Source: Nemertoderma westbladi
Lineage: Eukaryota; Animalia; Xenacoelomorpha
Length of the DNA: 64,000 nucleotides
Direction of reading: 5' to 3'
NCBI GenBank assembly: GCA_032718475.1
Contig: JAUCBJ010009113.1
Span: 11,722-75,721 of the forward strand
The notes beneath the pieces are model-generated. The model did not search any database. It worked only from the letters and a program-made list of their open reading frames with translations, and had not been told where the DNA came from. Positions 1 through 36,543 of this stretch are shown piece by piece (the first letter of the stretch is position 1; each line of letters begins with the position of its first letter). The translations under genes and the position numbers were made by a program.

Positions 1-3000
1 GAAATCGACCTCCGCACATTTATCCCTTTTTACTACTACTGTGAGGTTTCTTTGAGACTGACAAGAAATCGACCTCCGCACATTTATCCCTTTTTACTAC
101 TACTGTGAGGTTTCTTTGAGACTGACAAGAAATCGACCTCCGCACATTTATCCCTTTTTACTACTACTGTGAGGTTTCTTTGAGACTGACAAGAAATCGA
201 CCTCCGCACATTTATCCCTTTTTACTACTACTGTGAGGTTTCTTTGAGACTGACAAGAAATCGACCTCCGCACATTTATCCCTTTTTACTACTACTGTGA
301 GGTTTCTTTGAGACTGACAAGAAATCGACCTCCGCACATTTATCCCTTTTTACTACTACTGTGAGGTTTCTTTGAGACTGACAAGAAATCGACCTCCGCA
401 CATTTATCCCTTTTTACTACTACTGTGAGGTTTCTTTGAGACTGACAAGAAATCGACCTCCGCACATTTATCCCTTTTTACTACTACTGTGAGGTTTCTT
501 TGAGACTGACAAGAAATCGACCTCCGCACATTTATCCCTTTTTACTACTACTGTGAGGTTTCTTTGAGACTGACAAGAAATCGACCTCCGCACATTTATC
601 CCTTTTTACTACTACTGTGAGGTTTCTTTGAGACTGACAAGAAATCGACCTCCGCACATTTATCCCTTTTTACTACTACTGTGAGGTTTCTTTGAGACTG
701 ACAAGAAATCGACCTCCGCACATTTATCCCTTTTTACTACTACTGTGAGGTTTCTTTGAGACTGACAAGAAATCGACCTCCGCACATTTATCCCTTTTTA
801 CTACTACTGTGAGGTTTCTTTGAGACTGACAAGAAATCGACCTCCGCACATTTATCCCTTTTTACTACTACTGTGAGGTTTCTTTGAGACTGACAAGAAA
901 TCGACCTCCGCACATTTATCCCTTTTTACTACTACTGTGAGGTTTCTTTGAGACTGACAAGAAATCGACCTCCGCACATTTATCCCTTTTTACTACTACT
1001 GTGAGGTTTCTTTGAGACTGACAAGAAATCGACCTCCGCACATTTATCCCTTTTTACTACTACTGTGAGGTTTCTTTGAGATTGACAAGAAATCGACCTC
1101 CGCACATTTATCCCTTTTTACTACTACTGTGAGGTTTCTTTGAGACTGACAAGAAATCGACCTCCGCACATTTATCCCTTTTTACTACTACTGTGAGGTT
1201 TCTTTGAGACTGACAAGAAATCGACCTCCGCACATTTATCCCTTTTTACTACTACTGTGAGGTTTCTTTGAGACTGACAAGAAATCGACCTCCGCACATT
1301 TATCCCTTTTTACTACTACTGTGAGGTTTCTTTGAGATTGACAAGAAATCGACCTCCGCACATTTATCCCTTTTTACTACTACTGTGAGGTTTCTTTGAG
1401 ACTGACAAGAAATCGACCTCCGCACATTTATCCCTTTTTACTACTACTGTGAGGTTTCTTTGAGACTGACAAGAAATCGACCTCCGCACATTTATCCCTT
1501 TTTACTACTACTGTGAGGTTTCTTTGAGACTGACAAGAAATCGACCTCCGCACATTTATCCCTTTTTACTACTACTGTGAGGTTTCTTTGAGACTGACAA
1601 GAAATCGACCTCCGCACATTTATCCCTTTTTACTACTACTGTGAGGTTTCTTTGAGACTGACAAGAAATCGACCTCCGCACATTTATCCCTTTTTACTAC
1701 TACTGTGAGGTTTCTTTGAGACTGACAAGAAATCGACCTCCGCACATTTATCCCTTTTTACTACTACTGTGAGGTTTCTTTGAGACTGACAAGAAATCGA
1801 CCTCCGCACATTTATCCCTTTTTACTACTACTGTGAGGTTTCTTTGAGACTGACAAGAAATCGACCTCCGCACATTTATCCCTTTTTACTACTACTGTGA
1901 GGTTTCTTTGAGACTGACAAGAAATCGACCTCCGCACATTTATCCCTTTTTACTACTACTGTGAGGTTTCTTTGAGACTGACAAGAAATCGACCTCCGCA
2001 CATTTATCCCTTTTTACTACTACTGTGAGGTTTCTTTGAGACTGACAAGAAATCGACCTCCGCACATTTATCCCTTTTTACTACTACTGTGAGGTTTCTT
2101 TGAGACTGACAAGAAATCGACCTCCGCACATTTATCCCTTTTTACTACTACTGTGAGGTTTCTTTGAGACTGACAAGAAATCGACCTCCGCACATTTATC
2201 CCTTTTTACTACTACTGTGAGGTTTCTTTGAGACTGACAAGAAATCGACCTCCGCACATTTATCCCTTTTTACTACTACTGTGAGGTTTCTTTGAGACTG
2301 ACAAGAAATCGACCTCCGCACATTTATCCCTTTTTACTACTACTGTGAGGTTTCTTTGAGACTGACAAGAAATCGACCTCCGCACATTTATCCCTTTTTA
2401 CTACTACTGTGAGGTTTCTTTGAGACTGACAAGAAATCGACCTCCGCACATTTATCCCTTTTTACTACTACTGTGAGGTTTCTTTGAGACTGACAAGAAA
2501 TCGACCTCCGCACATTTATCCCTTTTTACTACTACTGTGAGGTTTCTTTGAGACTGACAAGAAATCGACCTCCATACATTTATCCCTTTTTACTACTACT
2601 GTGAGGTTTCTTTGAGACTGACAAGAAATCGACCTCCGCACATTTATCCCTTTTTACTACTACTGTGAGGTTTCTTTGAGACTGACAAGAAATCGACCTC
2701 CGCACATTTATCCCTTTTTACTACTACTGTGAGGTTTCTTTGAGACTGACAAGAAATCGACCTCCGCACATTTATCCCTTTTTACTACTACTGTGAGGTT
2801 TCTTTGAGACTGACAAGAAATCGACCTCCGCACATTTATCCCTTTTTACTACTACTGTGAGGTTTCTTTGAGACTGACAAGAAATCGACCTCCGCACATT
2901 TATCCCTTTTTACTACTACTGTGAGGTTTCTTTGAGATTGACAAGAAATCGACCTCCGCACATTTATCCCTTTTTACTACTACTGTGAGGTTTCTTTGAG

Positions 3001-4715
3001 ACTGACAAGAAATCGACCTCCGCACATTTATCCCTTTTTACTACTACTGTGAGGTTTCTTTGAGACTGACAAGAAATCGACCTCCACACATTTATCCCTT
3101 TTTACTACTACTGTGAGGTTTCTTTGAGACTGACAAGAAATCGACCTCCGCACATTTATTCCTTTTTACTACTACTGTGAGGTTTCTTTGAGACTGACAA
3201 GAAATCGACCTCCGCACATTCATCCCTTTTTACTACTACTGTGAGGTTTCTTTGAGACTGACAAGAAATCGACCTCCGCACATTTATCCCTTTTTACTAC
3301 TACTGTGAGGTTTCTTTGAGACTGACAAGAAATCGACCTCCGCACATTTATCCCTTTTTACTACTACTGTGAGGTTTCTTTGAGACTGACAAGAAATCGA
3401 CCTCCGCACATTTATCCCTTTTTACTACTACTGTGAGGTTTCTTTGAGACTGACAAGAAATCGACCTCCGCACATTTATCCCTTTTTACTACTACTGTGA
3501 GGTTTCTTTGAGACTGACAAGAAATCGACCTCCGCACATTTATCCCTTTTTACTACTACTGTGAGGTTTCTTTGAGACTGACAAGAAATCGACCTCCGCA
3601 CATTTATCCCTTTTTACTACTACTGTGAGGTTTCTTTGAGATTGACAAGAAATCGACTTCCGCACATTTATCCCTTTTTACTACTACTGTGAGGTTTCTT
3701 TGAGATTGACAAGAAATCGACCTCCGCACATTTATCCCTTTTTACTACTACTGTGAGGTTTCTTTGAGATTGACAAGAAATCGACCTCCGCACATTTATC
3801 CCTTTTTACTACTACTGTGAGGTTTCTTTGAGACTGACAAGAAATCGACCTCCGCACATTTATCCCTTTTTACTACTACTGTGAGGTTTCTTTGAGACTG
3901 ACAAGAAATCGACCTCCATACATTTATCCCTTTTTACTACTACTGTGAGGATTCTTTGAGACTGACAAGAAATCGACCTCCGCACATTTATCCCTTTTTA
4001 CTACTACTGTGAGGTTTCTTTGAGACTGACAAGAAATCGACCTCCGCACATTTATCCCTTTTTACTACTACTGTGAGGTTTCTTTGAGACTGACAAGAAA
4101 TCGACCTCCGCACATTTATCCCTTTTTACTACTACTGTGAGGTTTCTTTGAGACTGACAAGAAATCGACCTCCGCACATTTATCCCTTTTTACTACTACT
4201 GTGAGGTTTCTTTGAGATTGACAAGAAATCGACCTCCGCACATTTATCCCTTTTTACTACTACTGTGAGGTTTCTTTGAGATTGACAAGAAATCGACCTC
4301 CGCACATTTATCCCTTTTTACTACTACTGTGAGGTTTCTTTGAGACTGACAAGAAATCGACCTCCGCACATTTATCCCTTTTTACTACTACTGTGAGGTT
4401 TCTTTGAGACTGACAAGAAATCGACCTCCACACATTTATCCCTTTTTACTACTACTGTGAGGTTTCTTTGAGACTGACAAGAAATCGACCTCCGCACATT
4501 TATTCCTTTTTACTACTACTGTGAGGTTTCTTTGAGACTGACAAGAAATCGACCTCCGCACATTCATCCCTTTTTACTACTACTGTGAGGTTTCTTTGAG
4601 ACTGACAAGAAATCGACCTCCGCACATTTATCCCTTTTTACTACTACTGTGAGGTTTCTTTGAGACTGACAAGAAATCGACCTCCGCACAATATTTATCC
4701 CTTTTTACTACTACT
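1..4715. repeat. 64-bp tandem satellite, ~73 near-identical copies, truncated by the window start
   Basis: Unit GAAATCGACCTCCGCACATTTATCCCTTTTTACTACTACTGTGAGGTTTCTTTGAGACTGACAA recurs every 64 bp (1, 65, ... 961, 1921). Only scattered substitutions; the array ends about 4690-4715. Confidence 0.98.
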
Positions 4716-6554: not shown

Positions 6555-7475
6555 GAGAAAAAAGTAAAAATTGGGCACCAAGGCCGGCCAGAACTCCGGA
6601 AAAAACGGCGTATAATTATTGGACTTATTGCATTTGTGCTAGTGGCGATTGGAGCTGGTGTAATCGGGTGGTTTCTGGCAAATCAAGACAATGAAAATAG
6701 ATTGGGGATACCAACATCGGCAGTCCCAAATACTACCGGCAATGATAGGCCTACTACTGGCTGGGAAGGCATCACTGGGATACAGCTAGTAGTGAGTTAT
6801 CCACCATCGAGAGTACAGCTAGTAGTGAGTTATCCACCACCGAGAGTACAGCTAGTAGTGAGTTATCCACCACCGAGAGTACAGCTAGTAGTGAGTTATC
6901 CACCACCGAGAGTACAGCTAGTAGTGAGTTATCCACCACCGAGAGTACAGCTAGTAGTGAGTTATCCACCACCGAGAGTACAGCTAGTAGTGAGTTATCC
7001 ACCACCGAGAGTACAGCTAGTAGTGAGTTATCCACCACCGAGAGTACAGCTAGTAGTGAGTTATCCACCACCGAGAGTACAGCTAGTAGTGAGTTATTCA
7101 CCACCCAGAGTACAGCTAGTAGTGAGTTATCCACCACCGAGAGTACAGCTAGTAGTGAGTTATCCACCACCGAGAGTACAGCTAGTAGTGAGTTATCCAC
7201 CACCGAGAATACAGCTAGTACTGAGTTATCCACCACCGAGAGTACAGCTAGTAGTGAGTTATCCACCACCGAGAGTACAGCTAGTAGTGAGTTATCCACC
7301 ACCGAGAGTACAGCTAGTAGAGAGTTATCCACCACCGATATTACTACTACCACGACAACAATGACCTCAACCACCATCTCCAATAAGGATGACTTTTATC
7401 ATTCGTTTATCGAATGCAATGCTGCACGACATTGTGATCCCTACACTCATTCTCATATATGCAATATTGCGACAC
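6555..7475 (+). pseudogene. 5' part of a disrupted type II membrane protein gene (signal anchor plus repeat stalk), interrupted by an LTR element
   Basis: The frame of ORF 6636 extends upstream as ELRKKRRIIIGLIAFVLVAIGAGVIGWFLA, a basic cluster followed by a hydrophobic anchor. A 33-bp repeat follows, then an in-frame TGA at 7362 and MTF...AILRH up to the TSD GACAC (7471-7475). The correct frame through the repeat is unresolved. Confidence 0.55.
6781..7338 (+). repeat. 33-bp coding-type minisatellite, ~17 copies
   Basis: Unit AGTACAGCTAGTAGTGAGTTATCCACCACCGAG reads STASSELSTTE (mucin-like) in one frame and VQLVVSYPPPR in another. Confidence 0.95.
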
Positions 7476-8672
7476 TGTAAAAGCTTTTGCGTAATTAGCC
7501 GGTTATTTTCCCTTAAAGTACTCTGTAGTTGGTTTGCCAGGCATAAAAAGGCCGTGCCCTTGCTGTACTGGTGTTTTAGGGGACATAAAAGTCATTTCTT
7601 ATGTATTTGTACTGTATTTGTACTTTAGAGGACATAATCCACAATCTCGTGACGCAATAGCTGGATACTTTGAAAACAGTGTCGCTACCATGACGACGGC
7701 TAGCAGCTGATATTGCCACGTCGACGTTTCTTTGTTTCTTTGTTCTCTCGTTGTTCAGGTTGACCAATCAGAGCGTTTGTTGTCTCTGTGTTGAAGGTGT
7801 ATACAGAAACTCAGTAGTTCAGTGTTATGTTTTTGCCCAGAGCCTAAGAACCGGCTTTTGGCACCTCCGTGTTTTCAGTTTTAGTCTTACACTAGTAGGC
7901 TTAATTATAAGGACATATATCCGTTATCTGATGTCTGATCACTGCATTTATCACAACATAACATACCATACCTAATCAAACAACCTGTGCATACTTTTAT
8001 ATTGTTATACTGCTATTTACTGTCAGTTCTTCATAATATGGTTGATGAATTATTATATTTGGAATAACGATAAATAACCCCGAAACCCAATATTCTTGAT
8101 ATACCGAAGGTAAGAGAGAAGGGTTACATATAACAATTGTGACTTATGTTAAAGTGGTTTGAAGTGAATCTAATGTTATTTGATAGACCCTACATGATTC
8201 GGTCCGTGTTCCTTTTATATATAACTAAAATCAGTGAAGATCGGCAGATCAGTGTGCAGTATTGTGCAGCATTGTGTATGAGTGAACCTGATAACGAAGC
8301 ATTTCCTAAAGAATGCGCCATATATGTGAATTATAACTAAGCCATATCGTTGTGAGTAGTTTAAGTCATAACTCTGTGTATATAGATAGAGCGCCACGTC
8401 CTAAAGGAACTGTTAATATTTCCCGAAGGTGAATAATATTGTCAGAGATTATATAATACTGTCAGTCGAATAATACATTAAGCTTACATAGCAATAAGAT
8501 TAAGCCGTCGAACCCAATCTCCCGGGTATATCCAGCGGGTGAATGATCGCGCACAGATTGGTTTCGACTAGTGTAGTGAATTAAATACTTGTCATAGACT
8601 AAAAGTGATTTATTATCTAGAAGACATCCTAATTTGGCGGGTTAAACTGCCAAAGGTCTGAAAGCGCGAACA
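7476..8672 (+). repeat. 5' LTR of the outer element (1197 bp)
   Basis: TGTAAAAGC...GCGCGAACA. Identical by eye to 35347-36538 apart from a 5-bp indel near 8452. Confidence 0.95.
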
Positions 8673-8683
8673 ATAACGGATAT
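8673..8683 (+). promoter_or_regulatory. Candidate non-tRNA primer-binding site of the outer element
   Basis: ATAACGGATAT abuts the LTR end and is the exact reverse complement of ATATCCGTTAT at 7917-7927 inside the LTR. No TGG-type PBS lies next to the LTR. Confidence 0.6.
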
Positions 8684-8811
8684 TTAGTCTGTATTGCAGT
8701 GTAGGCACTAAATACAGTTTAATATTGTTCTGGTAAGAACAATAACGGATATAGCTTCTTTATTGCAGTAAGCAATAAAGTTGAAAGTACCGGTCAACCG
8801 GTAAACCTGAA

Positions 8812-9680: not shown

Positions 9681-10985
9681 ATTCAGAGTTTATGCGATTA
9701 TCCGCAACATTCATTCCCCAAGTTTGTTCCTACAGTAATTGTGTTTGTTATACATACCGCTATAGTTAAATTAACCCCGGTACTACACGGGCTGCTTGGC
9801 GTAGGTAAAGACTGGTGATTTTGTGCATCGGTCACTCCAGCAGATGCCGTGGTTCTTTTAGCTGTTCAAGTATATTTAACTACTGATTATCTGATTATAC
9901 AAGTACTCGTACCTAATTAGGGTTTAGTGTACAGTGCTTTCCGAAAGTAATTAGTGTAGGCATTATATTTGTGTTGTAAAGTGGTTGATAGGCACGTTCG
10001 ATTAGCTCTATTAACTTCTAGGTAGGAACACTCCGTGATACATAACGTAGAACCTATAGCGATACGGCTATAGGTCGTCAGGCGGTGGTATTTTCCTATC
10101 TGGACAACGCAGTGTATTTACTACTACGTTTTATTTTCAAATACCGCAGTACCCTGTCCGTTGTAATAACCAGATTTCTAACCCTTTGTTAGGCTGGTTT
10201 GTAGACTTCTTGTAAAATTACCCAGAAAATTCGTATTTTGTGTTTTTGTAAATTTTTGTGTTTATTTAGAGATTGTAATCTCACCCGAATTGTACGTAAT
10301 TTGTAGTATTAAGTAACTTAGGTAAATTAGAATTATTTGTTTTAGTGTCCTATAAGTAACACTTCACTGAAAGCGCACCGCTTTGTGTAGTGATTACTCC
10401 CCAGAAATAATAACATTTATTTCAAATATTGACAAAACCCATTAAACGGGTATATATATATTATAAATCAACTCAAACGATTTATAAATAGTAGGCCTGC
10501 CATACAACCATTAGGTCTCAATATCAGTTGGACTACTGCTCAAATAATGGTAATAAAGTAAGTAAAGTAACAAAGTAACCCTAAAATTCAGAAATTCAAT
10601 TATTTAAAATAATTGATATACCGGTATTTACGATAAGCCTATTATCTTTATTTCTATAAATTTAGGCTGAAATTATACCGGTACTTGTAATTAATTCTAG
10701 TCCAGAATTATATATACTACAAACTGTAAGCTGTATACCGGTATTCCCGATAGGCCTATTATATATTTATATATATTTGTGCTAAAATTATACCGGTATT
10801 CTGTGATAAACCTAGTCTGTAATAATACTTTTATAGTTATATATACTATAAGCATACCGGTGTTCTAATATATTATATATATATCCTACTACACTGAGTA
10901 GCAGTATCGGTAATTAATTACTAGGCTAGCAGTTAATACTGAGTTACTAGACTTGCTCAGACTGTAATACAGCAGTAGACATTCA

Positions 10986-11511
10986 ATGGTATACATAGAT
11001 ATGTCTGATACTAAGCAGAACCTGTCAGACAGTTTATTAGATGTAACTATCTGTGACTCAGATAGAGACGTAGAACCGTCTGGTCGTAAGTTCAGTTCAC
11101 CTCCCACTGTGAGGAAGGTCATCCCTCCTATAGTAATAACCGAACCTAGGCTGGTCCAACATCGTAGGTCTATCATAGGCACTCGAGCTCAGGTCAAGCG
11201 GGACCAAGAAGCAGCAGAACAGCAACAACCCGCGAGACAAGAACTTATTTCTCAGCGGCCCAACAGTTCCGGTAGTGATCATACTGTAGAGCTGACACCT
11301 GAGCGCGGAGCAAAGATGACGGATGCGGTTTATTCGGATCCCCTTCTCATCCTTCCTGCAGCCGTACTCACCAGGTTATTGATCGCTGTGGAAGAACACC
11401 AGATCGATTGGGCGAGAAGCCAGCGTTCAACTAGAGATAGTTATGCTGGATACACAAGAGAAGAACTGAAGTCCATGGTCGAGTCGCAATGGAACTTCCC
11501 CGGACCCGGAC
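10986..11511 (+). pseudogene. N-terminal part of the outer element gag, split by the nested insertion
   Basis: Removing 11512-28415 joins ...WNFPGPG to LPFDLSEAAWEDIHRMGVAKE..., in frame with the ORF at 28460. Confidence 0.9.
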
Positions 11512-13459
11512 TAATTGAAGAGATACGCCTATTCCTACTATTGGAAGAGACGGTAACAATACCTGCAATATCTTACTGTAAAGTTTGTAAATCAAATCAT
11601 AAATCCGACCTTCTCACCAAAACAGTAAACTCTAAGTAAGCGAATATATTGCAGTATCGATCTCTTATAACCGGTGAGGCAGAAAACAGTCTACGAGCAG
11701 ACAAACTTCGATAAAACAAAATCCCGCGCAGCGAATCCTAAAATCAGGCTGACTCACTGACGGACTAAAGGGCTCGTATACTTTGCCGCGGTGTGATTTA
11801 TATAGTTGGGCAAAGGGACGCTAGCTAGGTACAGAGGCAGATATTTGGAGATGTCTAACTAGCGAGCAAAGTGCAGTAAGGACGAAAGTTAATTTTATAT
11901 ATTTTGAGGTGTAAAGAATTTCTAACGCGCGTGTGTCAATTCTGAACGGTCAAAGCAGTTTTGCTCCTTCACATATATAATTACTGGGTACGGTGTGCAT
12001 TTTACGAATATTCTAATTTTATAACTTGTAGGTCCAATACTCACGAATGATAAGGTTCCTTCCCCTCTTGCGTATTTCCAGGACTCAAATTCAGGCATAG
12101 GGTTAATGCTACGCCCAGAATTCGGCAATTTTAGGTACCAGGTCCCTGATACTAAGAAGAGATGTGTTAGTTTACTACTGTAGGCGTACGGGTACTAATA
12201 GCTATCCTGGCTCCTATCTAGAATTTTAGTCACCCAGGTAGTCCGGGTAACTTCCTATTAGGGCGTTGGCGGGGACACGGTAGATGTTAGTATATCCCTG
12301 ATAGCCTCAATTTATTTGCGCCTAGTGTAAACTGCCCTACCGCCTGAACGGTACAATCCCAATTCAGGTGAAAACACAGCAACCCCCCTAGCCTACAAGT
12401 TCTAATGCAATGGACACTGTCGTACTACAAATAGTCGCACACACACCTGTACTTAGCAAGAGTTAAGCGTACAGTTTGCTGCACCCTAACCAATTGTATG
12501 CCTTGTACCGGTGTGCCTACGTCCTATCTGCGTACTAGTATCTGCCTGCGCTCTCTCCCTCCCCCGTAGGAATATGAAGGTCTACTGCGGTTTTTTCCTG
12601 AATCAAGACAGTACAGCCCCTATGATGTAATTTTAGGCTTACAGCGTGTCACTACGTCTACCTTTTGATCTTTTGGTCTTACACTTAGGTAGCAAGGATC
12701 GAACGCTGTCTAACCTTTCAGGCGATGGGCGAATAACTCTAGATGGTATTGCGGGTTGTCTCTCGTCTACATTCCCCCGATGTTCCCGTTCATTGCTGCG
12801 GCCCGATCTCTAGCCGGCCATCCTGTCCCTTAAGTTTGTTCACCGTAGTGAATCATGGTAAAACAGATAGAAAAGCAGATTAGCGATAATTCTGACTTTA
12901 TTACAGAAGATATAATTATAATACAATGTAATCTGAAATAAACTAAGCACGACAGAATATTGATAAGATAATCTGAGAAGTAGAAGTGAATATAGATTGA
13001 GATATAAGATTGAAGTAGTGAACTAATGAACGAAATCGCACCTTTATATACCAAATTTGTGCCGCAATCAATCGAGAAAATTCTCAATTGTTCTATGGGT
13101 TCTAACAGGGTTTTAAAGATAGCTATTGGTCCAGCTAATATATAACTTGCACGACATTGGTTACAATCAAATAACTACAGTCTCATTGGTACAGACAAAT
13201 GCAATTAATTTGTAGCGGTTAATTTAAATGAGTTGAAATTCTGCACAAAAAATAATTCGCAATTACTAGGATTCGAACTCGATACCTACTACACATATAA
13301 TTTCCAACGCTCTACCAACTGAGCTACTGAACCACTTGACCGATAGGCGCACAAATGATAGAACCAATACGAATGAGAACTCAAAGCAATCTTTACAAAG
13401 TTAATTCGAATAAAATAAAATTTTGAAAATCCATGGCATTTAGGGAATATAATTCTATA
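11512..13459 (-). repeat. 3' LTR of the inner element
   Basis: Minus strand reads TATAGAATT...CTTCAATTA. Matches 26461-28410 with at least 5 substitutions and a 2-bp indel seen by eye. Confidence 0.95.
13247..13333 (-). ncRNA. tRNA-derived Pol III-like cassette in the inner 3' LTR
   Basis: Minus strand GGTTCAGTAGCTCAGTTGGTAGAGCG...GAGTTCGAATCC...TTTTTT contains an A box, an intact D-arm (GCTC/GAGC), a B box and a T6 run. Acceptor, anticodon and T stems pair poorly, so it is not a functional tRNA. Confidence 0.7.
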
Positions 13460-16710: not shown

Positions 16711-19479
16711 TTATTTACTAGTATTAGGTGGAGATTTGTAGTCTCCAGACTCGTTACGAGTCTCTTCAAGAAGTACGAGACGTTGAGTCGGTCTGTCTAC
16801 TGTTCGACCGTCAATTGTCCGTACCGTCACAGTTCTTGTCACTCCATCCATAGATGGATGTGTGGCTAAAATTACACCTGTTATCCAGAAGCGTCTTTTT
16901 AGATTCACTTCCGCTAACAGCACGTGATCTCCCGGCTTTAATGCGCGGGTGTTATTGTACCAGTTTGTTCTGGCAGAAATAGAGGGCAAATAATGGTTTT
17001 GCCATATTTCCCAGAATTTGTTAGAAAGTAGTTGCGTGATTTTCCACGCTTTTCTACCGTAGCTGTCGCTTTCTATTGGAATAGAAATCGGCGTCAATGT
17101 GGTCGGTGCCTGCATAAGCAGGTGTGCCGGTGTTAAAGCGAACTGAGATTGTTTGTCATCGGGTACTAATACTATTGGTCTAGTATTTAGTATTGCCTCG
17201 ATTTCAACAAACAATGTTGTCAGTTGGTCGTCTGTCAATATGTGGTTTACTGGAATGACCTTTGCCATTGCCGTCTTTATAGATCTAATCAATCTCTCCC
17301 AGACTCCGCCTCTCCAAGGACTATCTGGAGGATTAAACTTCCAAACAATCTTGTGAGGTTGTAGTTCGTTCGAGATTTGATCATGATCTAGTTTCTTAAA
17401 GGCTCTAGCAATCTCATTCCGAGCACCAACAAAGTTTGTCCCTTGGTCTGAGTACAAGCATTTTACTAGTCCGCGTCTAGCGATAAATCGCCGCAGTGCT
17501 AGTATAAACGCGTTGGTGGAAAGATCCATCACACGTTCAATGTGAACTGCCCTACTGGACATACATGTGAAAATCAGTCCCCAGCGTTTTACTAGTATAC
17601 GTCCACGTTTCGTATGTATGGGACCAAAGCAATCAATTCCAGTCTCTGTAAAAGGTGGTCTGAATGCTTGAAGTCGTGCTTGTGGAAGTTCACTCATTTC
17701 TTGGGTACCTATTCTAGAGTGTACCTTTTTACAAATAATACACGTACGCGTCACTGAACTTAACGCTTTACTGGGTCTAATTAATACAAATCTTGTACGT
17801 AAGTAGGAAAGACAGTGGTGTCTTCCAGCGTGTTTCAGATGTAAATGTGCGTCCAGTATCATTGCACGTTGTAGTTCGTGGTGTTGCGGTATTATTATTG
17901 GGTACCTAAAGTTTGTGTTAAAGTCAATGTTTTGAAGCCGAGATTTATGACAAATTAAGCCATTATAAATAATCGGACTCCAACTCAGTATTGGTGACGA
18001 CTTGATTGGTTGACCTTGATTTATGGATGTGAATTCGCGCGCGAAATATCGCAGTTGGTAATGGCGAATTAATTTAATCTCACACCTGTCAATCTCAGCC
18101 AATGTAAGTCGACGTGTAAAGTCACGTTTGCCTTTAACGTATTGTACAAAACGTACAATCCACGCTAATTTTCGGCAAGCGTTTGTCCAAGAATCTGTTA
18201 GGTTTACAATCCGGTCGACGTGAGTATTTGTGACGTCATCAGGTAAGTCAATGGAGATTTTGGAAGGTTTTGAATTACTAGAAGGGCCCATGGGTCCGCC
18301 GGTAAGTATTCCCTTGTTGACTGTTGATCCGTCCGGGTCTACAAGTAATTTGTCCTTCTTCGTCTTCTTACCTTGATCGTCAGTACTTTGTAAGTCGATC
18401 GTTAATGGTGGTTTGAACTCTATGGGGTCAGCAGGTTTCGGTAAACTTATTTTCCTGCCGACATTAATCCCAGGTCTCACCATAGGTTGCAAGTTTGGTA
18501 TGTCTCTTGAGCGCAAAGTAACACCTGTATTTACATTAGCGTAGGTACTACCCACATCTGTAATACATGAGGTTTCACCGTGCTTATGGTTGCTCAAGCG
18601 TGTCAAAATTGGTAGTTTGTCGATACAAGGCCGCTCCAATAGAGAAACTGCGGCTTTACTGTTTGTCAATACATTACTAATGTCCGGTAGAACATTTTGT
18701 GATGTTTCTGACAAAATGTCTAGTCGACTGTCTAGTAATGTGTCTGGCGATACGTCTGGTAACGTATCTGGTTGTTTGTCAATAGAAGGCCGCTCCAATA
18801 GAGAAACTGCGGCTTTACTGTTTGTCAATACATTACTAATGTCCGGTAGAACATTTTGTGATGTTTCTGACAAAATGTCTAGTCGACTGTCTAGTAATGT
18901 GTCTGGCGATACGTCTGGTAACGTATCTGTTTGTTTGTCAATAGAAGGCCGCTCCAATAGAGAAACTGCGGCTTTACTGTTTGTCAGTGTGTTACTAGCG
19001 TCTGGTGGAACATTTTGTGACATGTCTGGTTGACCGTCTAGTAACGTGTCTGGTTGACCGTCTGGCGATATGTCTGGTGTAGAAAGGCTCGCAAGTCTTC
19101 CTCTCTTGACCTTTGAAGTTATATCTTTCCATTTCGCCTTCGGTTTTTTCTTGAGTTTTGCCGCCGTCGTCCTTTTCTTTGTCTTCCCCTTTTTTGGTTT
19201 CTTGATTTCGGCGTCCTTAGGGATAGTGTTAGATTTGTTGTCGTATAACGGAGGCCAATCTTGCGTCGATTTCTGCAAGAATTGGGGTCCGTGTTGCCAA
19301 AATTCTTTGTTCTCCGGTTTACAGAATTCCTCAGGCATCATTCCTCGCGACGCAATATCAGCTGGGTTTTGTGGTCCGGGACAATGTCGCCAATCCTCTT
19401 TTATTGAACGGTCTAGAATTTCCGCGCGACGGTTAGCTACGAATGTCTTGAATTCGAGTGTGTCGTTGTTTATGTAAAA
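16711..19479 (-). CDS. Inner BEL/Pao pol C-terminal part: end of RNase H, repeat linker, integrase
   Basis: FKTFVANR, NPAD-like QNPADIASRG, HHCC zinc finger (HLHLKH...CIIC), DDE motifs GIDCFGP, SDQGTNF and GGVWERLIRSIK, and the BEL C-terminal FWEIWQNHYL. In frame with the upstream ORF across a single TAA. Confidence 0.93.
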   Translation of the reverse strand, partial: FYINNDTLEFKTFVANRRAEILDRSIKEDWRHCPGPQNPADIASRGMMPEEFCKPENKEFWQHGPQFLQKSTQDWPPLYDNKSNTIPKDAEIKKPKKGKTKKRTTAAKLKKKPKAKWKDITSKVKRGRLASLSTPDISPDGQPDTLLDGQPDMSQNVPPDASNTLTNSKAAVSLLERPSIDKQTDTLPDVSPDTLLDSRLDILSETSQNVLPDISNVLTNSKAAVSLLERPSIDKQPDTLPDVSPDTLLDSRLDILSETSQNVLPDISNVLTNSKAAVSLLERPCIDKLPILTRLSNHKHGETSCITDVGSTYANVNTGVTLRSRDIPNLQPMVRPGINVGRKISLPKPADPIEFKPPLTIDLQSTDDQGKKTKKDKLLVDPDGSTVNKGILTGGPMGPSSNSKPSKISIDLPDDVTNTHVDRIVNLTDSWTNACRKLAWIVRFVQYVKGKRDFTRRLTLAEIDRCEIKLIRHYQLRYFAREFTSINQGQPIKSSPILSWSPIIYNGLICHKSRLQNIDFNTNFRYPIIIPQHHELQRAMILDAHLHLKHAGRHHCLSYLRTRFVLIRPSKALSSVTRTCIICKKVHSRIGTQEMSELPQARLQAFRPPFTETGIDCFGPIHTKRGRILVKRWGLIFTCMSSRAVHIERVMDLSTNAFILALRRFIARRGLVKCLYSDQGTNFVGARNEIARAFKKLDHDQISNELQPHKIVWKFNPPDSPWRGGVWERLIRSIKTAMAKVIPVNHILTDDQLTTLFVEIEAILNTRPIVLVPDDKQSQFALTPAHLLMQAPTTLTPISIPIESDSYGRKAWKITQLLSNKFWEIWQNHYLPSISARTNWYNNTRALKPGDHVLLAEVNLKRRFWITGVILATHPSMDGVTRTVTVRTIDGRTVDRPTQRLVLLEETRNESGDYKSPPNTSK
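18620..19075 (-). repeat. 159-bp (53-aa) in-frame tandem repeat between RNase H and integrase
   Basis: CCGCTCCAATAG occurs at 18631, 18790 and 18949; protein TNSKAAVSLLERPxIDK x3. Confidence 0.9.
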
Positions 19480-22400
19480 TTAAACCAACGTCGCGTCAGT
19501 CCAATAAAATATCTGTAAACTCGACTGTAGTTCTGTCTGTATGAGGTTCACGATGGTGGTTGACAGGGTTGCGGCTTGTAGCTCAGCTCGTGGTGTCGTC
19601 ATATACTTAGTAGGCATGGTCTTAGCCTTAGAAGTAATGAGCGAAACATCGAACTCGTCTGAGTCTACTTGTCTGCGCAAGTACGCTGCCACACCAAAAC
19701 CGTTGTCACTGGCGTCAGAAAAACAGTGTAATTCCAAGTTGTCAGGAAATGTACTTTGTAATGGAAAGTAAACCCTGGGTATGAAATAATCCTCTAGCGA
19801 AGATAATTCCGCCTCCCAGGTCTTCCATAAGTCCACTTGGTCTGATGAGATCGGCTCGTCCCATGTTAGTCCATCCTTCCATATACTGCGCATATAAATG
19901 CGGGCTTGCAGTATCACTGGACTGATGAATCCTAACGGATCGAACAATCGGCTCAATTTTGACAAGCATGATCTCTTTGTCAGTGTGTTCTCTTGACTGT
20001 CCAGTCTCACCTTCACTCGAAAGTTGTCTGTGTTTGGGTCCCAAAAGAGCCCCAACACCTTAGTCGTCGGTAGTGGTTCGAACTCTAGGTCTATGTCACC
20101 ACCTCCACGCTCAGTCGTTCCGAATGAGTCTACTAATTCGGCACTGTTTGAGGCGAATTTGGTGAGGTTAAAACCTCCGCCCGCTAAGCAGTCCCGTAAT
20201 TGATGTGCTACTGTTGTAGCACGTTCTACTGTGTCGCAACTCTGTAAACCGTCATCGACGTAAAAGTCACGTTCTACGATTTTAATTATCTCTGGGTCAT
20301 ATAGATGTTTCTGATCCCTAGCGGCCTGCTTTAGGGCGTACATCGTGCAATTTGGGCTGTCTCTGGCACCGAAAACGCGAACTTGCATTTGGTAAGTCGC
20401 CGGTGGTAAACTTAAGTCTCCTTCCGGGTACCAGAGGAACCGCAAACTGTCTCTGTCTCGCTCTAACGCTCTCACTTGGTGAAACATCGCTTCAACGTCA
20501 CAAGTAAAAGCTACTTGACGCTGACGGAAGCGCATAATCACCCCCATAAGATAATTATTCATGTTTGGTCCATCCATCAACTCACTATTGAGGGACATTC
20601 CCTCAAATAGAGCCGCACAATCATTGACTACGCGTACTTTATCTGGTTTGTCGGGGTGTCTCACATAGTGATGTGGCAAGTAATATGTTTGGTCAGTCAC
20701 TATCTCCGGGTTAGTCATTCGGATAGCGTATCCTTTTGTCAAATACGTCTCCATCTGAGTGTTGTACTGCAGATGGGCTTTCTCGTCCTTTAATAGACGT
20801 TGCCGTATTGAATGTAGACGTCTTAAAGCCAGTGGGTAGTTGTTTATAAGTTTAGGACTTTGGCTACGCCATAACATCCCTACCTCATAATGTCCGTCTT
20901 TCGTCTGGTGGATAGTATCTTCCATGATCTTCAGAGATTGTTTCTCCTGTTCCGACATACAAGGTTCGTAGCTACCAGGTTCAGCTGTATCTTGTTCTAA
21001 CCACCTGATAGTCTTCTCCGTTAATTCTTTGTCCAAAGCGGCTTGTTCCATTTGATGATTTCTCAACACGTCATCATCGATATCGACGGGCACTGTTGAG
21101 GTTATTGGGGTAGGTAGACTCGCAAGCCTATCATGTGTCGTCGATGGAATCTCTAGCTGACTTGTCTTCTCCCCAAGTTCTAAACTCACCTGGTGGGTTA
21201 GCTGCTCCTTGTGACTTATCATACTAGTTACACGTCTGTCATGTTTTGTCGACTGTAGTGTAGTATGGTTCACGTCGTGTGAAAAGGAATGAATTGAATT
21301 TGTAGTTAATAAACTACATGTACTTTGTACATCGTCTTCCTCGTCACTTACGTCTAGTGTGCGCACAGGCGCTCGAGTATACCACCCTATCGGCGTTCTG
21401 CAGGCGTATGCGTTTCCCGCTACAACTGCCGATGGTCTGGTTTCCCACACCTGATGTAGGTTGAATTGGTCTGTCCCGATCAGCATGGCTACCGATCTAT
21501 AATTGACAGGACATTCGGGTACACCTAGGTGTCTGAAATACTTACGGTCCTCTAGAGATTGTTCCGGCACTGGACCTAGTAGATTACTAAAGTCCTTCGT
21601 GGCCGCAAAGGTTAGATCTTTAAAGGGCAACAAAGACCTCTCCCTCTCGCTGTGCTGCGATTTCGGAAGAAGAGAGTCTAAGTCCAACTTAACTCGTGTC
21701 ACTGGTATTGCACGCTGTCCGTGCATACTACTTACGGTATAACTGACGTGCTTACCTTGTTTAAGATCCGTCACTACGTCAGCTATCTTTTCATCCACGT
21801 AGCTATGAGATGAGGCTGAATCTAGAATAGCGTAGATTCTTTTACTCCCATTTGTGCCGGTAATCTTAATCGGAATTACACTGAATCCCTTCAGTTGGTC
21901 AGTAGTCAGAAGCGCGATCGACGGTTGTTCGTCTCCATTGGAATATTCGTCGTCGTCTTCTAACTCTTCATCCGACGATCCGGATTGTTCTGAGAAGCAA
22001 TCCTCAATATGGGTCACGAAGGTTGGAGTCGTTTTCGATTCTCGCCTTTTGTAGGCCGCATCACATCTCGCTGCTGCTTCCGGGTGTTCCCTGGCGAAGC
22101 GTTTCGTCGGCGTGTGGCTGTCTGTATGGAGCAGACCGTCATGGTTGCGTCCACAGGATGGACAAGTGTCGGTATTTGGGCAATCTTTACGGACGTGTCC
22201 GTGTCGCGTACACCGCCAACAAGAGTCCAGTGGCCGTATTTGCAGCCGTCGTTCTTCCGAGTTCAACTCGCGAAATTGTCGACAACCTCGTAACTTGTGA
22301 CCGATATACCGCTTGCCTAAATGCTCGCAGTATTGGCAGCCGCTGAAGTCGGTACTAAGTTGTTGTCTCGTCTGTTTTGTCCCAATGGGCGCAGATACCC

Positions 22401-25400
22401 TACTACCGTCCGAGAATTGTCGTGATTCCGTCGGTGTGGTGTAAGTGGCCGTCTTAGTGGATGTTGTCTGGGGTTTTTGTCGGTTGGAGGATGGCAATGT
22501 GATCCCTTCTGCCACGATGTGCTGGTCAGTGTAGTTAGATCGAGTTTCTACTACTGCCTCCCTGGATATTAAAAGGTACACATCTTCTAATTTTAAGAAT
22601 CCTCCCCGCTCTTCTCGCTGGTATTCGACCTTTCTCCACTCCCGACGAAGTCGATGGTGGAGTCGTCCTATGATCTTTAATAGGACTGTAGGGGTATTCC
22701 CGTAATCAAGTTGTCCAATGGATCTTAAGGTAGTGATAGCGTTCTTGATCTCGTCAGCTAGTTTTAATAAGTCGACGGGTTTAGTGATAGCCCCTCCCTT
22801 ACAGAGTTCCTCTATTACTGACCTGGCCATACTAACTGTACCTCCGTATATCGAAGTTAAACGATCGTACGCTAGTTCAAAAGCGTCCGGTACACCGACG
22901 AAAGTCTCCGCCAAACGTTTAGGTTCTCCTGACAACGTTTGGAGCAGGTAATCGAACTTCTCCCGTGATGTAAAGGCGCACACGGCGATCTGGGATTCGT
23001 TATAGTCTACGAAAGTATGCCAGTGTTTTGAGCTACCGGAAAACTTCGGTGGTTGTTGTACCGGCAATCCCTGTCTGGCTGCGAATTTCGCTATCTCCTC
23101 GGCAACGTTCAGAGTTTCGCGTCCTTGGTTGGTACGCTGGTTGATATCCCTTCTTGGCGCTTTTCCCTGATACGATGTGGGGTTTGAAGGTACCGGTCTT
23201 TGTGGTTCCTTCGGGTGTCTATTGTGTTCGAATTCGGAATTTCTCGAACTGTCGGTGTAACCTTCCTCCAGACGTTCCTCGATCTGAGCCAACTTATTGA
23301 CAACTGGTCGCAGAATGTCGGCGAACTGTTGTGTACTAATTGCGTCCGTTGGTTGTAACGCCTTCTGTGTTGGTGTATTCTGTGGAGGATTGTCTGCAAA
23401 GGAGTTGTCTGAATGCTCGCGTTTATATTCATCGGCCGCCCCTGTTCTAAATACCTCGCGTTTCGGGTAATCCGATTCGCTCGAAGTACTACTATCATCC
23501 GGATATGGTGGTCGACGTGCTCGCGTCCGTTGCGTCGTTCGAATTCTAACGTTCCGTTTCGGAACATCGTCCACTGATCTCCGTTGTTCGGTAGGCTCAC
23601 AAGTCTTCCTCGAAGTCGTAGATTGCGATGTAAATTGGTTGAATGGTCGCGTATCCACTGTTCTCCGTTGTTCGGTAGGCTCACAAGTCTTCCTCGAAGT
23701 CGTAGATTGCGATGTAAACTGAACCGGTGGGCGAATGACAGCATTTGAAACAACTGGCCTTGTGGGTCGAAACGTCATTGGGTAAGCGTAGTGTGTAACG
23801 GGTTTAGGTGTCGACGGTGGACTCACCTGTTTAGTCGTCAGTAGTGCAGGTCCAGTCAACAAACTACTACGATCCGTAATCGGTGGGTTACTTACCTTGA
23901 CTTTCGGAATGGGCGACGACGTTGCTCTTGGCGGTGTAAACTCGTCCGGAATAACAAACCTGTGTTCCGTCGCACCATGGATAGGAGAAATGTTACTACT
24001 ACCCGCAATCGAAACAGGTTCCTTAGTCGTAACTGGTGCAAACATATGAGTTACCTGTGGGAATCGTTGACACAAGTCCTTTACTAATTGTCGTTCCCGT
24101 CCGGGTGCTCCCACGCTTCCTTCCTTCTTCCGTTCCTGAATTTGGCGATGTCTTACCTCTATCTGGTCCAAGTCATGTCCGTCTCGAGATCTCATTGATC
24201 GATCGCGGGCTAGAAGATCCAGATTTTCCTTGGCTTCGGCTACTTCTCTCGCCTTCTTCTCGAGTTCGAAATGGAGTTTAGCTGTCTTCTCTCGTTGTTC
24301 CGTTTGTTGTCGTTGCGCCTCAAACTCCGCTTGTCGTATAGCGGATTGAGCTTTTATTTGCCGTGTTTTCATTTCGGCCCGTGCTTCCGAAACTAATCTT
24401 TCTCTCTCTAAATCAGCCGCTGCGTTTCGTCGCTCTAAATCAGCCGCTGCGTTTCGTCGCTCTAAATCAGCCGCTGCGTTTCGTCGCTCCAAATCAGCCG
24501 CTGCCATTTGTCGCTCTAACTCGACCGCTGCGTTTCGTCGCTCCAAATCAGCCGCTGCGTTTTGTCGCTCCAAATCAGCCGCTGCCATCTGTCGCTCTAA
24601 CTCGACCGCTGCGTTTCGTTGCGCTAAATCAACCGCTGCTGTTTGTTGGGCGATGTCTACCTCTAACCTTTCTACTTCAGCTGCTTCTAATTCAGCTTGT
24701 TCCTGTAGATGAGAGATTCTCGCTACATTTGCAACGCGCAGCTTCTCTTCCTCTACTGCTGCCTGCATCACTAGAAGTTGAGCTTGTTCCTCGATTTCTC
24801 GTTGTTGTTGGTAGAATTCTTGCTGTTGTCGAGCAACTTCTGACGTGACCATACTTCCCTCGCAGATTTCGCTACGAATACTTACCAGCGATTGATTTAG
24901 TATTCCCGGTGCCGATTCGATTTGTGCGAATGAAGTTTCCTTCGTATATTCCGGCACGGTTTCCAAATCACCGACGTCTTCGCCGCACATGCGTAAGTGG
25001 TCCGTCAGGTGTTTCAATTGTCCATCCAGTCGGTACAGTTCCTGTTCTTCCTCGGGTTGTAATAATTCGTCCGAAACTGACTCACCTAACAACTGGTCCG
25101 CTTGTTCCTGTTGTATCTGTCTAATCGTCGACTTAAACTGAATCAGTTTCTCTCTAGCGATCATTAGTTTCTCGAGGATTCTAAGTTGAGTATCCACGTC
25201 CTGTCTCTGTCTAGCTAGATCTTGTAGACCAATTAGGTTATCTACGGACTTGTGTACTCTACTTTGTACTCTAACCTGGAGGGTGTAGAACTCGAATCGA
25301 GACATCGGAGCGGTCAACTCGTCTAATGTGCGTTGGCCTTCCCCAATACTCCTGGTTATATGCGCCATATATCCTCCGACGCTTCTAACCACACTTTCTG

Positions 25401-25650
25401 TGCTTCCTGCTGAACTTACCATGTCCGATTCCCTATATCTAGGTTGCGGAACAATTAGAAAGTCCTCGGTCCTGCCGTCGCCTCGTACTACGGCATCCGG
25501 TACTCCCGTTGGATGTACTGGTGACGCACACGGTGTAGGTTCGGTAGGCTCGCGAGTCTTCCCCTGTTGTTCTTCCGCTGCTGACTTATCTCCGTTGCAT
25601 GAGTCATAGTCGGTAGGTGTGTTCTTCGTATAGTCTTGTTTGTCACTCAT
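19480..25650 (-). CDS. Inner BEL/Pao gag-protease-RT-RNase H polyprotein, ending at a premature TAA
   Basis: BEL-type knuckles CWRCTRHGHVRKDC and CPSCGRNHDGLLH; protease ILDSAS; RT YYLPHH...KVRVVND, DVEAMFHQV, FYVDD; Pao-type RNase H LHCFSDASD and TPRAELQAA. Confidence 0.95.
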   Translation of the reverse strand: MSDKQDYTKNTPTDYDSCNGDKSAAEEQQGKTREPTEPTPCASPVHPTGVPDAVVRGDGRTEDFLIVPQPRYRESDMVSSAGSTESVVRSVGGYMAHITRSIGEGQRTLDELTAPMSRFEFYTLQVRVQSRVHKSVDNLIGLQDLARQRQDVDTQLRILEKLMIAREKLIQFKSTIRQIQQEQADQLLGESVSDELLQPEEEQELYRLDGQLKHLTDHLRMCGEDVGDLETVPEYTKETSFAQIESAPGILNQSLVSIRSEICEGSMVTSEVARQQQEFYQQQREIEEQAQLLVMQAAVEEEKLRVANVARISHLQEQAELEAAEVERLEVDIAQQTAAVDLAQRNAAVELERQMAAADLERQNAAADLERRNAAVELERQMAAADLERRNAAADLERRNAAADLERRNAAADLERERLVSEARAEMKTRQIKAQSAIRQAEFEAQRQQTEQREKTAKLHFELEKKAREVAEAKENLDLLARDRSMRSRDGHDLDQIEVRHRQIQERKKEGSVGAPGRERQLVKDLCQRFPQVTHMFAPVTTKEPVSIAGSSNISPIHGATEHRFVIPDEFTPPRATSSPIPKVKVSNPPITDRSSLLTGPALLTTKQVSPPSTPKPVTHYAYPMTFRPTRPVVSNAVIRPPVQFTSQSTTSRKTCEPTEQRRTVDTRPFNQFTSQSTTSRKTCEPTEQRRSVDDVPKRNVRIRTTQRTRARRPPYPDDSSTSSESDYPKREVFRTGAADEYKREHSDNSFADNPPQNTPTQKALQPTDAISTQQFADILRPVVNKLAQIEERLEEGYTDSSRNSEFEHNRHPKEPQRPVPSNPTSYQGKAPRRDINQRTNQGRETLNVAEEIAKFAARQGLPVQQPPKFSGSSKHWHTFVDYNESQIAVCAFTSREKFDYLLQTLSGEPKRLAETFVGVPDAFELAYDRLTSIYGGTVSMARSVIEELCKGGAITKPVDLLKLADEIKNAITTLRSIGQLDYGNTPTVLLKIIGRLHHRLRREWRKVEYQREERGGFLKLEDVYLLISREAVVETRSNYTDQHIVAEGITLPSSNRQKPQTTSTKTATYTTPTESRQFSDGSRVSAPIGTKQTRQQLSTDFSGCQYCEHLGKRYIGHKLRGCRQFRELNSEERRLQIRPLDSCWRCTRHGHVRKDCPNTDTCPSCGRNHDGLLHTDSHTPTKRFAREHPEAAARCDAAYKRRESKTTPTFVTHIEDCFSEQSGSSDEELEDDDEYSNGDEQPSIALLTTDQLKGFSVIPIKITGTNGSKRIYAILDSASSHSYVDEKIADVVTDLKQGKHVSYTVSSMHGQRAIPVTRVKLDLDSLLPKSQHSERERSLLPFKDLTFAATKDFSNLLGPVPEQSLEDRKYFRHLGVPECPVNYRSVAMLIGTDQFNLHQVWETRPSAVVAGNAYACRTPIGWYTRAPVRTLDVSDEEDDVQSTCSLLTTNSIHSFSHDVNHTTLQSTKHDRRVTSMISHKEQLTHQVSLELGEKTSQLEIPSTTHDRLASLPTPITSTVPVDIDDDVLRNHQMEQAALDKELTEKTIRWLEQDTAEPGSYEPCMSEQEKQSLKIMEDTIHQTKDGHYEVGMLWRSQSPKLINNYPLALRRLHSIRQRLLKDEKAHLQYNTQMETYLTKGYAIRMTNPEIVTDQTYYLPHHYVRHPDKPDKVRVVNDCAALFEGMSLNSELMDGPNMNNYLMGVIMRFRQRQVAFTCDVEAMFHQVRALERDRDSLRFLWYPEGDLSLPPATYQMQVRVFGARDSPNCTMYALKQAARDQKHLYDPEIIKIVERDFYVDDGLQSCDTVERATTVAHQLRDCLAGGGFNLTKFASNSAELVDSFGTTERGGGDIDLEFEPLPTTKVLGLFWDPNTDNFRVKVRLDSQENTLTKRSCLSKLSRLFDPLGFISPVILQARIYMRSIWKDGLTWDEPISSDQVDLWKTWEAELSSLEDYFIPRVYFPLQSTFPDNLELHCFSDASDNGFGVAAYLRRQVDSDEFDVSLITSKAKTMPTKYMTTPRAELQAATLSTTIVNLIQTELQSSLQIFYWTDATLV

Positions 25651-26449
25651 TTCGGTAGTTGTAAGTCAAGTAAAGTGAGTGTCAAAGTATCGAGTTTACC
25701 GTATTTATCTAAACGGTACTAATTACAGTCTTATAAAATTAGCCTACCGGCCGATTTTATAGCAGATGGATAAAATTAGCCTAAAACGGCCAATTTTACA
25801 GCAAATAAATGTCACGGAATAAGTATATAATAAAATTAGCCTAGCGGCCAATTTTATAACAAATAAATCGGATAACGATATGCGTTATCAAAAGGTAAAT
25901 TAAATACAATAATACGGACTAATTCAGCAACGAACAAAGAAATCATACGGAATGCATAAATACTTGAGACAGTGGAACCCACAATAATTTTAACTAATAC
26001 GGTAATGCCTAACTTATTTATGCAACTTTTCGAACTCACCCACTCCAATAATTCTCCAGAAAAACAGATTCCCAGATACAAACCGGACGTGAACCTTTCC
26101 GTTTTTAACGTTGCGGACGAAACGCGATTTTCCCAACCAAAGTTGTTGAGTTATCTATCTCCCAAACTTGCTAAACACGGTCTTGCTCCCGTTACAGTCT
26201 AGAAATGAGTTCTGAATCCTGAAAAACAAAAGAGTTAGGTTTTACTTTACGAAAAATTTTTGTACCGGTACAATATGGTATTTAAACCCTTTTAAACACC
26301 GGTATTCAATTCCAAAAATATTTTACACGCGGTTCAAATCAAATTTTATTTCAAAAAATTAGCACTTAGCTAATCAAATACAAAATTTTTACCTCAAAAT
26401 ACAAAATTTTCAAATAACTTTAGTCCTACCGAACCGTAGTTCAGTAAAA

Positions 26450-26459
26450 CATATTCCTA
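26450..26459 (-). promoter_or_regulatory. Candidate non-tRNA primer-binding site of the inner element
   Basis: Minus strand TAGGAATATG starts 1 nt after the 5' LTR and is complementary to sense-strand CATATTCCTA in the LTR (27518-27527). No TGG is present. Confidence 0.5.
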
Positions 26460-28410: not shown

Positions 28411-28415
28411 CGGAC

Positions 28416-31400: not shown

Positions 31401-32983
31401 AATTCAGTGATGTGAACGACACTGATCAATCTGAGATGGAAGGATTCTATACAGACGAGTTCTCCGACGAAAACGAATCCTGTTACATGATAAATACCGC
31501 AGTGTATCGAGCACTCACATATGAAAAAGATACAGACAACGACTTTACTCTAACTACTTCTGAGCGACAACCATCTTGGAAAGAGCCATCTTCCAATGTA
31601 GGGATCCGAGAGTTTCCTGTGGTGCAAGTAAGGGTTCACGGACCTGAGAGGAGTTATGTAGTGAACGCCCTCCTTGACTCCGGTAGTACAGGAACATTCA
31701 TCGACAAAGAGCTAGCCGAAGATATATTTGCTGGACAACCCAAGTTCCAAACTAAGCTCAACATGTCCGGCATTATGCAAGTTTGGAAATCTACAATAAC
31801 AGCTGATTATTATGTAGGCGCGTTGTCCACCCCACAAGACGAACTAGGAGAACATAGCATAAGGTCAGTGAAAATGGTAGCTATAAAGAACTTCGCTACT
31901 ACTCAAGCAGACCTTTATAATTGGGACGAGGATGAGAGCATCCAACATCTTAACATACCTCGATTCCAGACTGATTATCCTGGAGTGCAAATACTCATCG
32001 GCCAAAACGCGCATGAGGCGCTGGAGACATTAGAGAAACGGCCTGCTCAACCGCAGCCACTACAGACCTATGCGGTAAGAACTAGAGTAGGTTGGTACTT
32101 TACTGGCCCTTCCCGTAGAACACTCAGAGAAAGACTACCGCCAGAGAGCGTATGCCAGGTGAGTGAATGGGAAGATGATACCAGTGAGGGAGACAACTTA
32201 ACTGAGGGAACTCCATACTCCTCAGATAATGACGACGTTCACCAGCTTTTTGATGAGGAGAATACCATCGATCTCCTTAAGGAAAACGAGGCTTGGCAAA
32301 ACCAAGTGAACTTATGTCAACTTCTCTATCCATCTGAACGAGAAGCTTACAACGACGAGTTAAATGACGTCATTGAGCGTTGCAATGCCAAGACTCGAGA
32401 TGAACATGCTGTACGATTCTTTACGCAAGAGGCGGTAGAGCCCAATTCCTACGATAAAGCCTTGTCGGTGGAAGAGGAAAGGGCCAAGCAGATCCAAGAG
32501 ACAACTACACGTTTCCTCAAAGATCAAGGAAGGTACGAAGTCGGTTTACCTTTTCGCAAGAGAGAACCGAAGTTCATCAATAACAGACCTTTGGCGGAAA
32601 AAAGAATCGCGCAACTCCATCGACGCCTTACGGCTAATTCTTCAGCTAAAGCAATGTATCAAACGCAGCTGGAAAAATTTATTAGTAAGGGATACGCAGA
32701 GAGAGTACCGGAAGAAACACCTATGACTGAAAGAACGTATTACTTAACTCACCATTACGTTCCTAAACCCGGTAAGCCACACGAAGTGAGAGTAGTGTTT
32801 GATGGCTCCGCTCTTTACATGGGTCAATCCCTTAACTCTGAATTGTTACCCGAACCCAACTTGCTTCAATCTTTGTTGGGAATTCTTTTAAGATTGAGAC
32901 AATATTCGATTGCTTTCGCCTCCGATATAGAAGGCATGTTCTTACAAGTCAAGGTGCTAGATAGGGATCGAGATAGTAATTAA
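28416..32983 (+). pseudogene. Outer BEL/Pao gag-protease-partial RT
   Basis: Knuckles CALCDGTHHLNRC, CYNCLRQGHQRRTC and CAKCGAKHHILLH; protease ALLDSGS; RT start YYLTHH...VRVVFDGS...SDIEGMFLQV. It stops abruptly at DRDSN* before YxDD. No RNase H or integrase is found downstream. Confidence 0.93.
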
Positions 32984-36538: not shown

Positions 36539-36543
36539 GACAC

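Follow-up and report, generated by a model that had tools for sequence, protein, structure and literature searches.

Nested BEL/Pao retrotransposons of Nemertoderma westbladi match their own LTRs at the primer-binding position, suggesting tRNA-independent priming

We analysed a 64,000-nt stretch of DNA from Nemertoderma westbladi (hereafter the window) and found in it two nested BEL/Pao retrotransposons, each of which carries, directly behind its 5' LTR, a short sequence complementary to a segment of its own LTR. The same feature was found among related elements, and it is real and lineage-wide. The 11 nucleotides that follow the outer 5' LTR (8673-8683) are probably, by analogy with Tf1, the binding site for a primer cut in cis from the element's own RNA, after position 7927. 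That the primer would be self-derived, whether it acts in cis or in trans, is likely.

Two nested BEL/Pao elements

Self-comparison of the window revealed one LTR element inserted into another (Table 1). Both are BEL/Pao elements according to their Pfam domains (PF03564 in both, PF05380 and PF18701 in the inner one) and their homologues, and LTRs, target site duplications and polypurine tracts are present. The outer element is young, its LTRs differing by no substitution and by a single 5-nt indel, and the second element lies within its gag, in the minus-strand orientation. The BEL-type homologues numbered 357, with the best showing 36-43% identity; the named BEL homologues among the matches listed came from sea urchins, molluscs, cnidarians, a nemertean and a tunicate. 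The start of the outer RT could be aligned to the inner-element protein. In 32984-35346 no RNase H or integrase homology was found, and this 2.4-kb segment, without homology to BEL Pol, stands in place of the remaining outer pol. With a frame that ends early in RT and is followed by this segment, the outer element is non-autonomous.

Table 1. Features of the outer and inner elements in the window
Feature	Position	Strand	Remarks
Outer 5' LTR	7476-8672	+	1197 nt, TG..CA ends
Outer 3' LTR	35347-36538	+	from self-comparison
Outer target site duplication GACAC	7471-7475 and 36539-36543
Candidate CCAAT box	7764	+	candidate promoter
Weak TATA-like TATACAGA	7800	+	6/8 consensus; 122 nt before middle of primer segment; candidate promoter
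Rival weak TATA-like TATAAGGA	7906-7913	+	6/8 consensus positions
Outer predicted self-primer segment ATATCCGTTAT	7917-7927 (LTR position 442-452)	+	contiguous, intron-less
ATTAAA	8580-8585	+	sole poly(A)-signal hexamer in outer LTR
Outer primer-binding position ATAACGGATAT	8673-8683	+	offset 0 from LTR end, no TGG
Second copy of LTR end and primer site (GAACA+ATAACGGATAT)	about 8737-8753	+	69 nt downstream
Outer gag frame, 5' part	10968-11511	+	broken by insertion of inner element
Outer frame, remainder	28370-32983	+	gag (DUF1759, triple Cys-His box), protease (ALLDSGS), RT start, then stop
Outer polypurine tract end GGGAGCGG	35339-35346	+
Inner 5' LTR	26461-28410	-	1950 nt, TA..TA ends
Inner 3' LTR	11512-13459	-	polypurine tract ending GGAGCGG directly upstream (from 13460)
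Inner target site duplication CGGAC	11507-11511 and 28411-28415
Inner gag-pol	16711-25665	-	DUF1759, Peptidase_A17, integrase, DUF5641
Inner predicted self-primer segment CATATTCCTA	27518-27527 (LTR position 884-893)	-
Inner primer-binding position TAGGAATATG	26450-26459	-	1 nt past LTR, no TGG

The inner gag-pol frame contains one in-frame TAA (19480-19482), in the RNase H region. The inner LTR pair differs by five substitutions and a 2-nt indel, which is more than in the outer pair, yet the inner element was inserted into the outer one. The TA..TA ends of the inner LTRs, in place of TG..CA, have counterparts in the TA 3' ends of several relatives (L001, L051, L137). We also noticed by eye a tRNA-like piece with A-box and B-box in the inner LTR (13265-13345 and the equivalent place in the 5' LTR), possibly a SINE head; ARAGORN and Rfam called no tRNA or RNA family over the window, this piece included.

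The window elements share with Belpaoviridae (Semotivirus) the Gag-protease-RT-RNase H-integrase order, the DUF1759, Peptidase_A17 and DUF5641 domains and the 5-bp target site duplication, and with Sinbad the triple Cys-His box and the ALLDSGS protease motif (PMC554778). Judged by motifs only, they probably belong to the Sailor (Sinbad-like) lineage; our trees were built without named reference sequences. In the surroundings, open frames shortly before the outer element contain a 33-nt tandem array of 17 copies (6781-7338) with a mucin-like Thr/Ser/Glu repeat, long inverted repeats around 147/167-nt satellite arrays in both orientations give 39145-52784 a foldback-like appearance, and the window ends (1-4715 and 61619-64000) hold a near-perfect 64-nt satellite and a 23-nt satellite.

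Complementarity between the LTR and the primer-binding position

An earlier, sequence-only reading of this DNA had noted that 8673-8683 is the exact reverse complement of 7917-7927, and the self-comparison of the window confirmed it; the LTR segment is repeated in the outer 3' LTR at 35788-35798. No TGG is present within 0-3 nt of the outer LTR, in agreement with that reading, and the polarity is the one it had described as suitable for minus-strand priming, with the 3' end of the LTR segment paired to 8673. The expectation for the 11-mer to occur in its own LTR by chance was 9e-4 under a first-order Markov model, and two of 300 dinucleotide-shuffled outer LTRs reached 11 nt when offsets of 0-4 were allowed. 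The second copy of the site, overlooked earlier, gives a 12-bp match to 7916-7927. Also overlooked was a 10-nt self-match in the inner element (reached by 3 of 300 shuffles), whose sequence differs from that of the outer match and whose LTR segment recurs in the 3' LTR at 12567-12576. Since the best segment shared by the outer and inner proteins has 29% identity, the inner self-match represents a separate instance of the pattern. A chance match in AT-rich DNA could be suspected for a single 11-mer picked from a large scan; however, with the independent match in the nested element and the counts obtained for the relatives (see below), we consider such an origin extremely unlikely.

The longer imperfect pairing around the outer site, which had been proposed as well, is present, but its stability is within chance, as 123 of 1000 flank shuffles were equally stable; the corresponding numbers were 440 for the inner element and 43 for the second outer copy. 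Fewer than 50 per 1000 were found in only 4 of 14 elements, and extended pairing was not retained as general support. A spliced match was likewise tried for the outer and inner elements and rejected, being weaker (8 and 9 nt, respectively) than the contiguous one. Hairpins are predicted directly behind both outer site copies (8684-8780), and a hairpin with a UACG loop behind the inner site (26422-26449). Among the contigs of run X1, which are of uncertain type, one skips the 69 nt between the outer site copies, and one that diverges after 7930 has the segment 7917-7927 unchanged. The run gave neither splice joints nor start sites, and contigs of this kind could not reveal them; a step in its depth near 8000 was not taken as evidence.

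Self-matches and LTR introns among the relatives

The relatives were retrieved with an alignment of the inner RT-RNase H and 38 of 120 listed homologues, which yielded 80 metagenome and 22 genome-collection loci; 20 further regions came from three of the five assemblies searched, and a viral contig collection, scanned twice, gave no relatives. From 42 inspected loci with repeated ends we kept 15, in which the LTR 3' end was fixed by the divergence of the two copies and one LTR was full, and the addition of L144 brought the set to 16 relatives with 34-46% identity. Loci cut within the LTR were left out, as were L049 (end unclear) and L098 (L022 family, altered end), and the LTR end of L074 was placed 2 nt past the aligned end, at CA. 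Each element was scored by its longest exact complement at offsets 0-4, either contiguous or across a canonical intron. Candidates had already been seen when the offset range was extended from 0-3 to 0-4 and the splice filters were set; cross pairs were treated equally. Several BEL/Pao and gypsy animal elements (L082, L084, L087, L089, L098 and other genome-collection loci) were located in contigs filed as bacterial MAGs, which is likely host contamination.

An exact self-match of 10-15 nt was found in 14 of the 18 elements with a bounded LTR end (outer, inner and the 16 relatives), whereas in the control only 2 of 306 cross pairs reached this length, both of them between sister families. The sequence-only reading had asked whether the two sites co-vary in related families; they do, each family having its own, and these counts also support its inference of a BEL/Pao lineage that does without tRNA and has a primer site matching the LTR of the element itself. 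The match is contiguous in five elements (outer, inner, L001, L041, L089). Nine others (L011, L019, L022, L034, L051, L077, L082, L084, L144) match only after removal of a predicted intron within the LTR, with a GTRAG-type donor and a pyrimidine-AG acceptor. The remaining four of the 18 match at a canonical junction, L068 with 10 exact nucleotides and an acceptor below our pyrimidine filter, L057 and L074 with one G:U pair and L087 with one mismatch. For the sister pair L082/L084, a change of the exon end from CAC to TAA is accompanied by a change of the site from GTG to TTA, i.e., a compensatory change of three bases. Sixteen loci with undefined LTR ends were left uncounted, the LTR end being free: four (L008, L009, L035, L048) have an 11-nt junction match at a plausible ACA end, and the other 12 showed nothing clear.

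None of the 17 elements first examined has TGG at 0-3 nt, and L144 has TGG at +1 alongside an 11-nt junction match. In three BEL elements that are more distant (28-34% identity), a TGG lies no further than 1 nt from the LTR; the self-matches in these and in one gypsy element were 7, 6, 0 and 6 nt, and the TGG-type BEL elements were placed outside the self-matching group in our trees. The family-specific sites also bear on a further explanation, in which a host tRNA half or another host small RNA primes and the LTR match is secondary: each site differs and matches its own LTR, not those of other families. The anticodon loop of tRNAs obeys the rule Y32-U33-NNN-R37, which the outer 11-mer, inspected by eye, fits in no register, and the four tRNA genes found in 152 loci, a very small set, match by at most 5 nt. 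Thus, although half-tRNA priming is known in Ty1/copia lineages (PMC6317226), we find a host RNA primer highly improbable here.

The two forms of the match meet at one locus, L041: in the 5' copy an intron with a pyrimidine-AG acceptor ends precisely where the junction lies, and in the full-length 3' LTR the sequence is already joined. The similarity of the two copies is 88%, and they may derive from different insertions. Intron loss is shown at this locus and presumed for the window elements. On the trees, the contiguous forms correspond to four to five changes, and they cluster no more than shuffled labels do. A quick tree restricted to the 189 columns that the outer element covers, which gave long-branch warnings, joined the outer and inner elements as sisters (SH-aLRT 94) and placed them beside L011, an intron-bearing element (SH-aLRT 88), and within the self-matching group (81); in a longer alignment, again with a quick tree and long-branch warnings, the position of the outer element was not resolved. 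The tree support for the nesting of both elements in the self-matching group is modest.

A predicted priming mechanism and its relation to known systems

The sequence-only reading had suggested a Tf1-like primer made of the first 11 nt of the RNA. We found no support for this in the relatives: in nine of the 16, a TATA-like box (7 or 8 of 8) precedes the junction by 118-156 nt, and hence the primer is probably internal. Three relatives have a TATA-like box 36-75 nt upstream, and four have none. The outer LTR has no strong TATA box, and TATACAGA and TATAAGGA score alike; TATAAG at 7906 could direct the RNA start to about 7936, past the primer segment. For the inner element, the clearest TATA box is ~470 nt upstream, and AATAAA precedes the self-primer site. 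In whole-leader folds, the helix at the first outer site had a probability of 0.00-0.01 with all starts tested between 7614 and 7905, and of no more than 0.09 with a start at 7917. The second outer copy alone paired well, and only with the RNA start at 7917, and the inner helix formed for one of three starts, its own first base. Folds of 900-nt RNAs are unreliable, but these favour an RNA start at the site and lend no support to an upstream one. Strong splice donors were noticed downstream of the primer segment in the outer LTR (8110-8187 and 8352), and these could yield subgenomic RNAs without the primer site.

The distance from the primer end to the LTR end is 745 nt in the outer and 1057 nt in the inner element, in comparison to 44-245 nt in the 16 relatives. 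Because of this difference, we also considered a primer that is self-derived but acts in trans, as a short LTR RNA ending at 7927 and provided by a solo LTR, the 3' LTR or a second packaged genome, with no intramolecular loop. The 745-nt loop is long and its intramolecular pairing is predicted to be poor, a poly(A) hexamer 1-26 nt past the primer end in several relatives makes short LTR transcripts plausible, and co-variation would be accounted for equally well. However, such an RNA would require an unadenylated 3' end exactly at the site, and the Tf1 precedent acts in cis (PMC7175516), and we think that a primer in trans is unlikely. The hexamers located close behind the paired segment would also suit a regulatory pairing, acting for instance by masking the 5' poly(A) signal or by monitoring splicing ahead of packaging, with another primer in use. 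Against this role, which seems improbable to us, the partner lies in all cases 0-4 nt past the LTR end, where minus-strand synthesis starts, no alternative primer site is evident, and the hexamer is 653 nt (outer) and 251 nt (inner) away from the paired segment in the window elements.

According to the cis model that we favour, the RNA would start in the 5' LTR at or upstream of 7917, perhaps near 7830, and 7917-7927 would pair with 8673-8683 or with the copy at 8742. By analogy with Tf1, the RNase H of RT would cut just 3' of 7927 and leave a free 3'-OH, from which RT would copy 8672 back to 7928 as strong-stop DNA. Following the general pathway, the primer would be copied during plus-strand synthesis, which would renew the binding site in each cycle and keep both in step, and this regeneration could explain the co-variation. 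In most relatives the primer segment would be an exon-exon junction created by splicing of the LTR intron, and the contiguous forms, those of both window elements included, may arise by reverse transcription of the spliced LTR. The outer copy, without RNase H and integrase, would need both in trans.

In Tf1, the RNA first pairs with its own site, and RNase H then cleaves it between bases 11 and 12 (PMC7175516); self-primers are given for Tf1/sushi, Tcn1 and TAR (PMC6317226). Tf1/Tf2 of S. pombe, Tj1 of S. japonicus and the Tf1/sushi and Tcn1 groups of Ty3/gypsy are likewise described with no tRNA site and with ~11 nt beside the 5' LTR complementary to their own LTR, in minus-strand polarity (PMC7175516, PMC4600332, PMC6317226). 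The priming of the window elements likely works in a similar way to that of Tf1, outside the Tf1 group: Tf1/sushi elements have a Ty3/gypsy chromovirus Pol, whereas the window elements have BEL/Pao proteins, and the Tf1 primer is the first 11 nt of the RNA, whereas theirs is probably internal, with a loop of 745-1057 nt, and in most of their relatives coincides with a predicted splice junction. Self-priming outside Ty3/gypsy was likewise predicted from sequence for the TAR lineage (Houba, Osr-1) of plant Ty1/copia, which differs in superfamily and host and for which the relevant part of the source mentions no splice junction (PMC6317226). The ICTV profile of Belpaoviridae gives an 18-nt site for tRNA-Arg or tRNA-Gly and calls the replication tRNA-primed and poorly understood (PMC8742986); the window elements, with no tRNA site, depart from this description, not from the protein-based placement. 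By titles and abstract openings we found no report of self-priming in BEL/Pao; subscription journals, Repbase entries and supplements were outside this scope and may hold one. The terms primer, PBS, tRNA and intron do not occur in PMC3118150, nor do PBS, primer or tRNA in the excerpts of PMC6238403, or PBS, primer binding or tRNA in those of PMC8556966; parts of PMC3601003, PMC8220671, PMC5341516 and PMC6934838 were also within the scope.

In the review sections covered, BEL/Pao is the sole large LTR superfamily with no self-priming listed. Whether a large aquatic-animal branch of BEL/Pao is tRNA-free, with an internal primer cut from RNA and ancestrally spliced from an LTR intron, and with intron-less forms that arose repeatedly, is in our judgement an evenly balanced question. 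The cis model makes exact predictions, namely a strong-stop DNA end at 7928 and the RNA attached to it. If true, self-priming would have arisen independently a third time, here with an internal primer that is in most members a splice junction, and the account of how LTR elements begin reverse transcription would change. This would also explain the failure to find primer sites in many marine BEL elements, and the elements would escape control by tRNA fragments. Reverse transcription would then be gated by host splicing, which would remove the intron from the 5' LTR of an RNA and leave the one in its 3' LTR in place.
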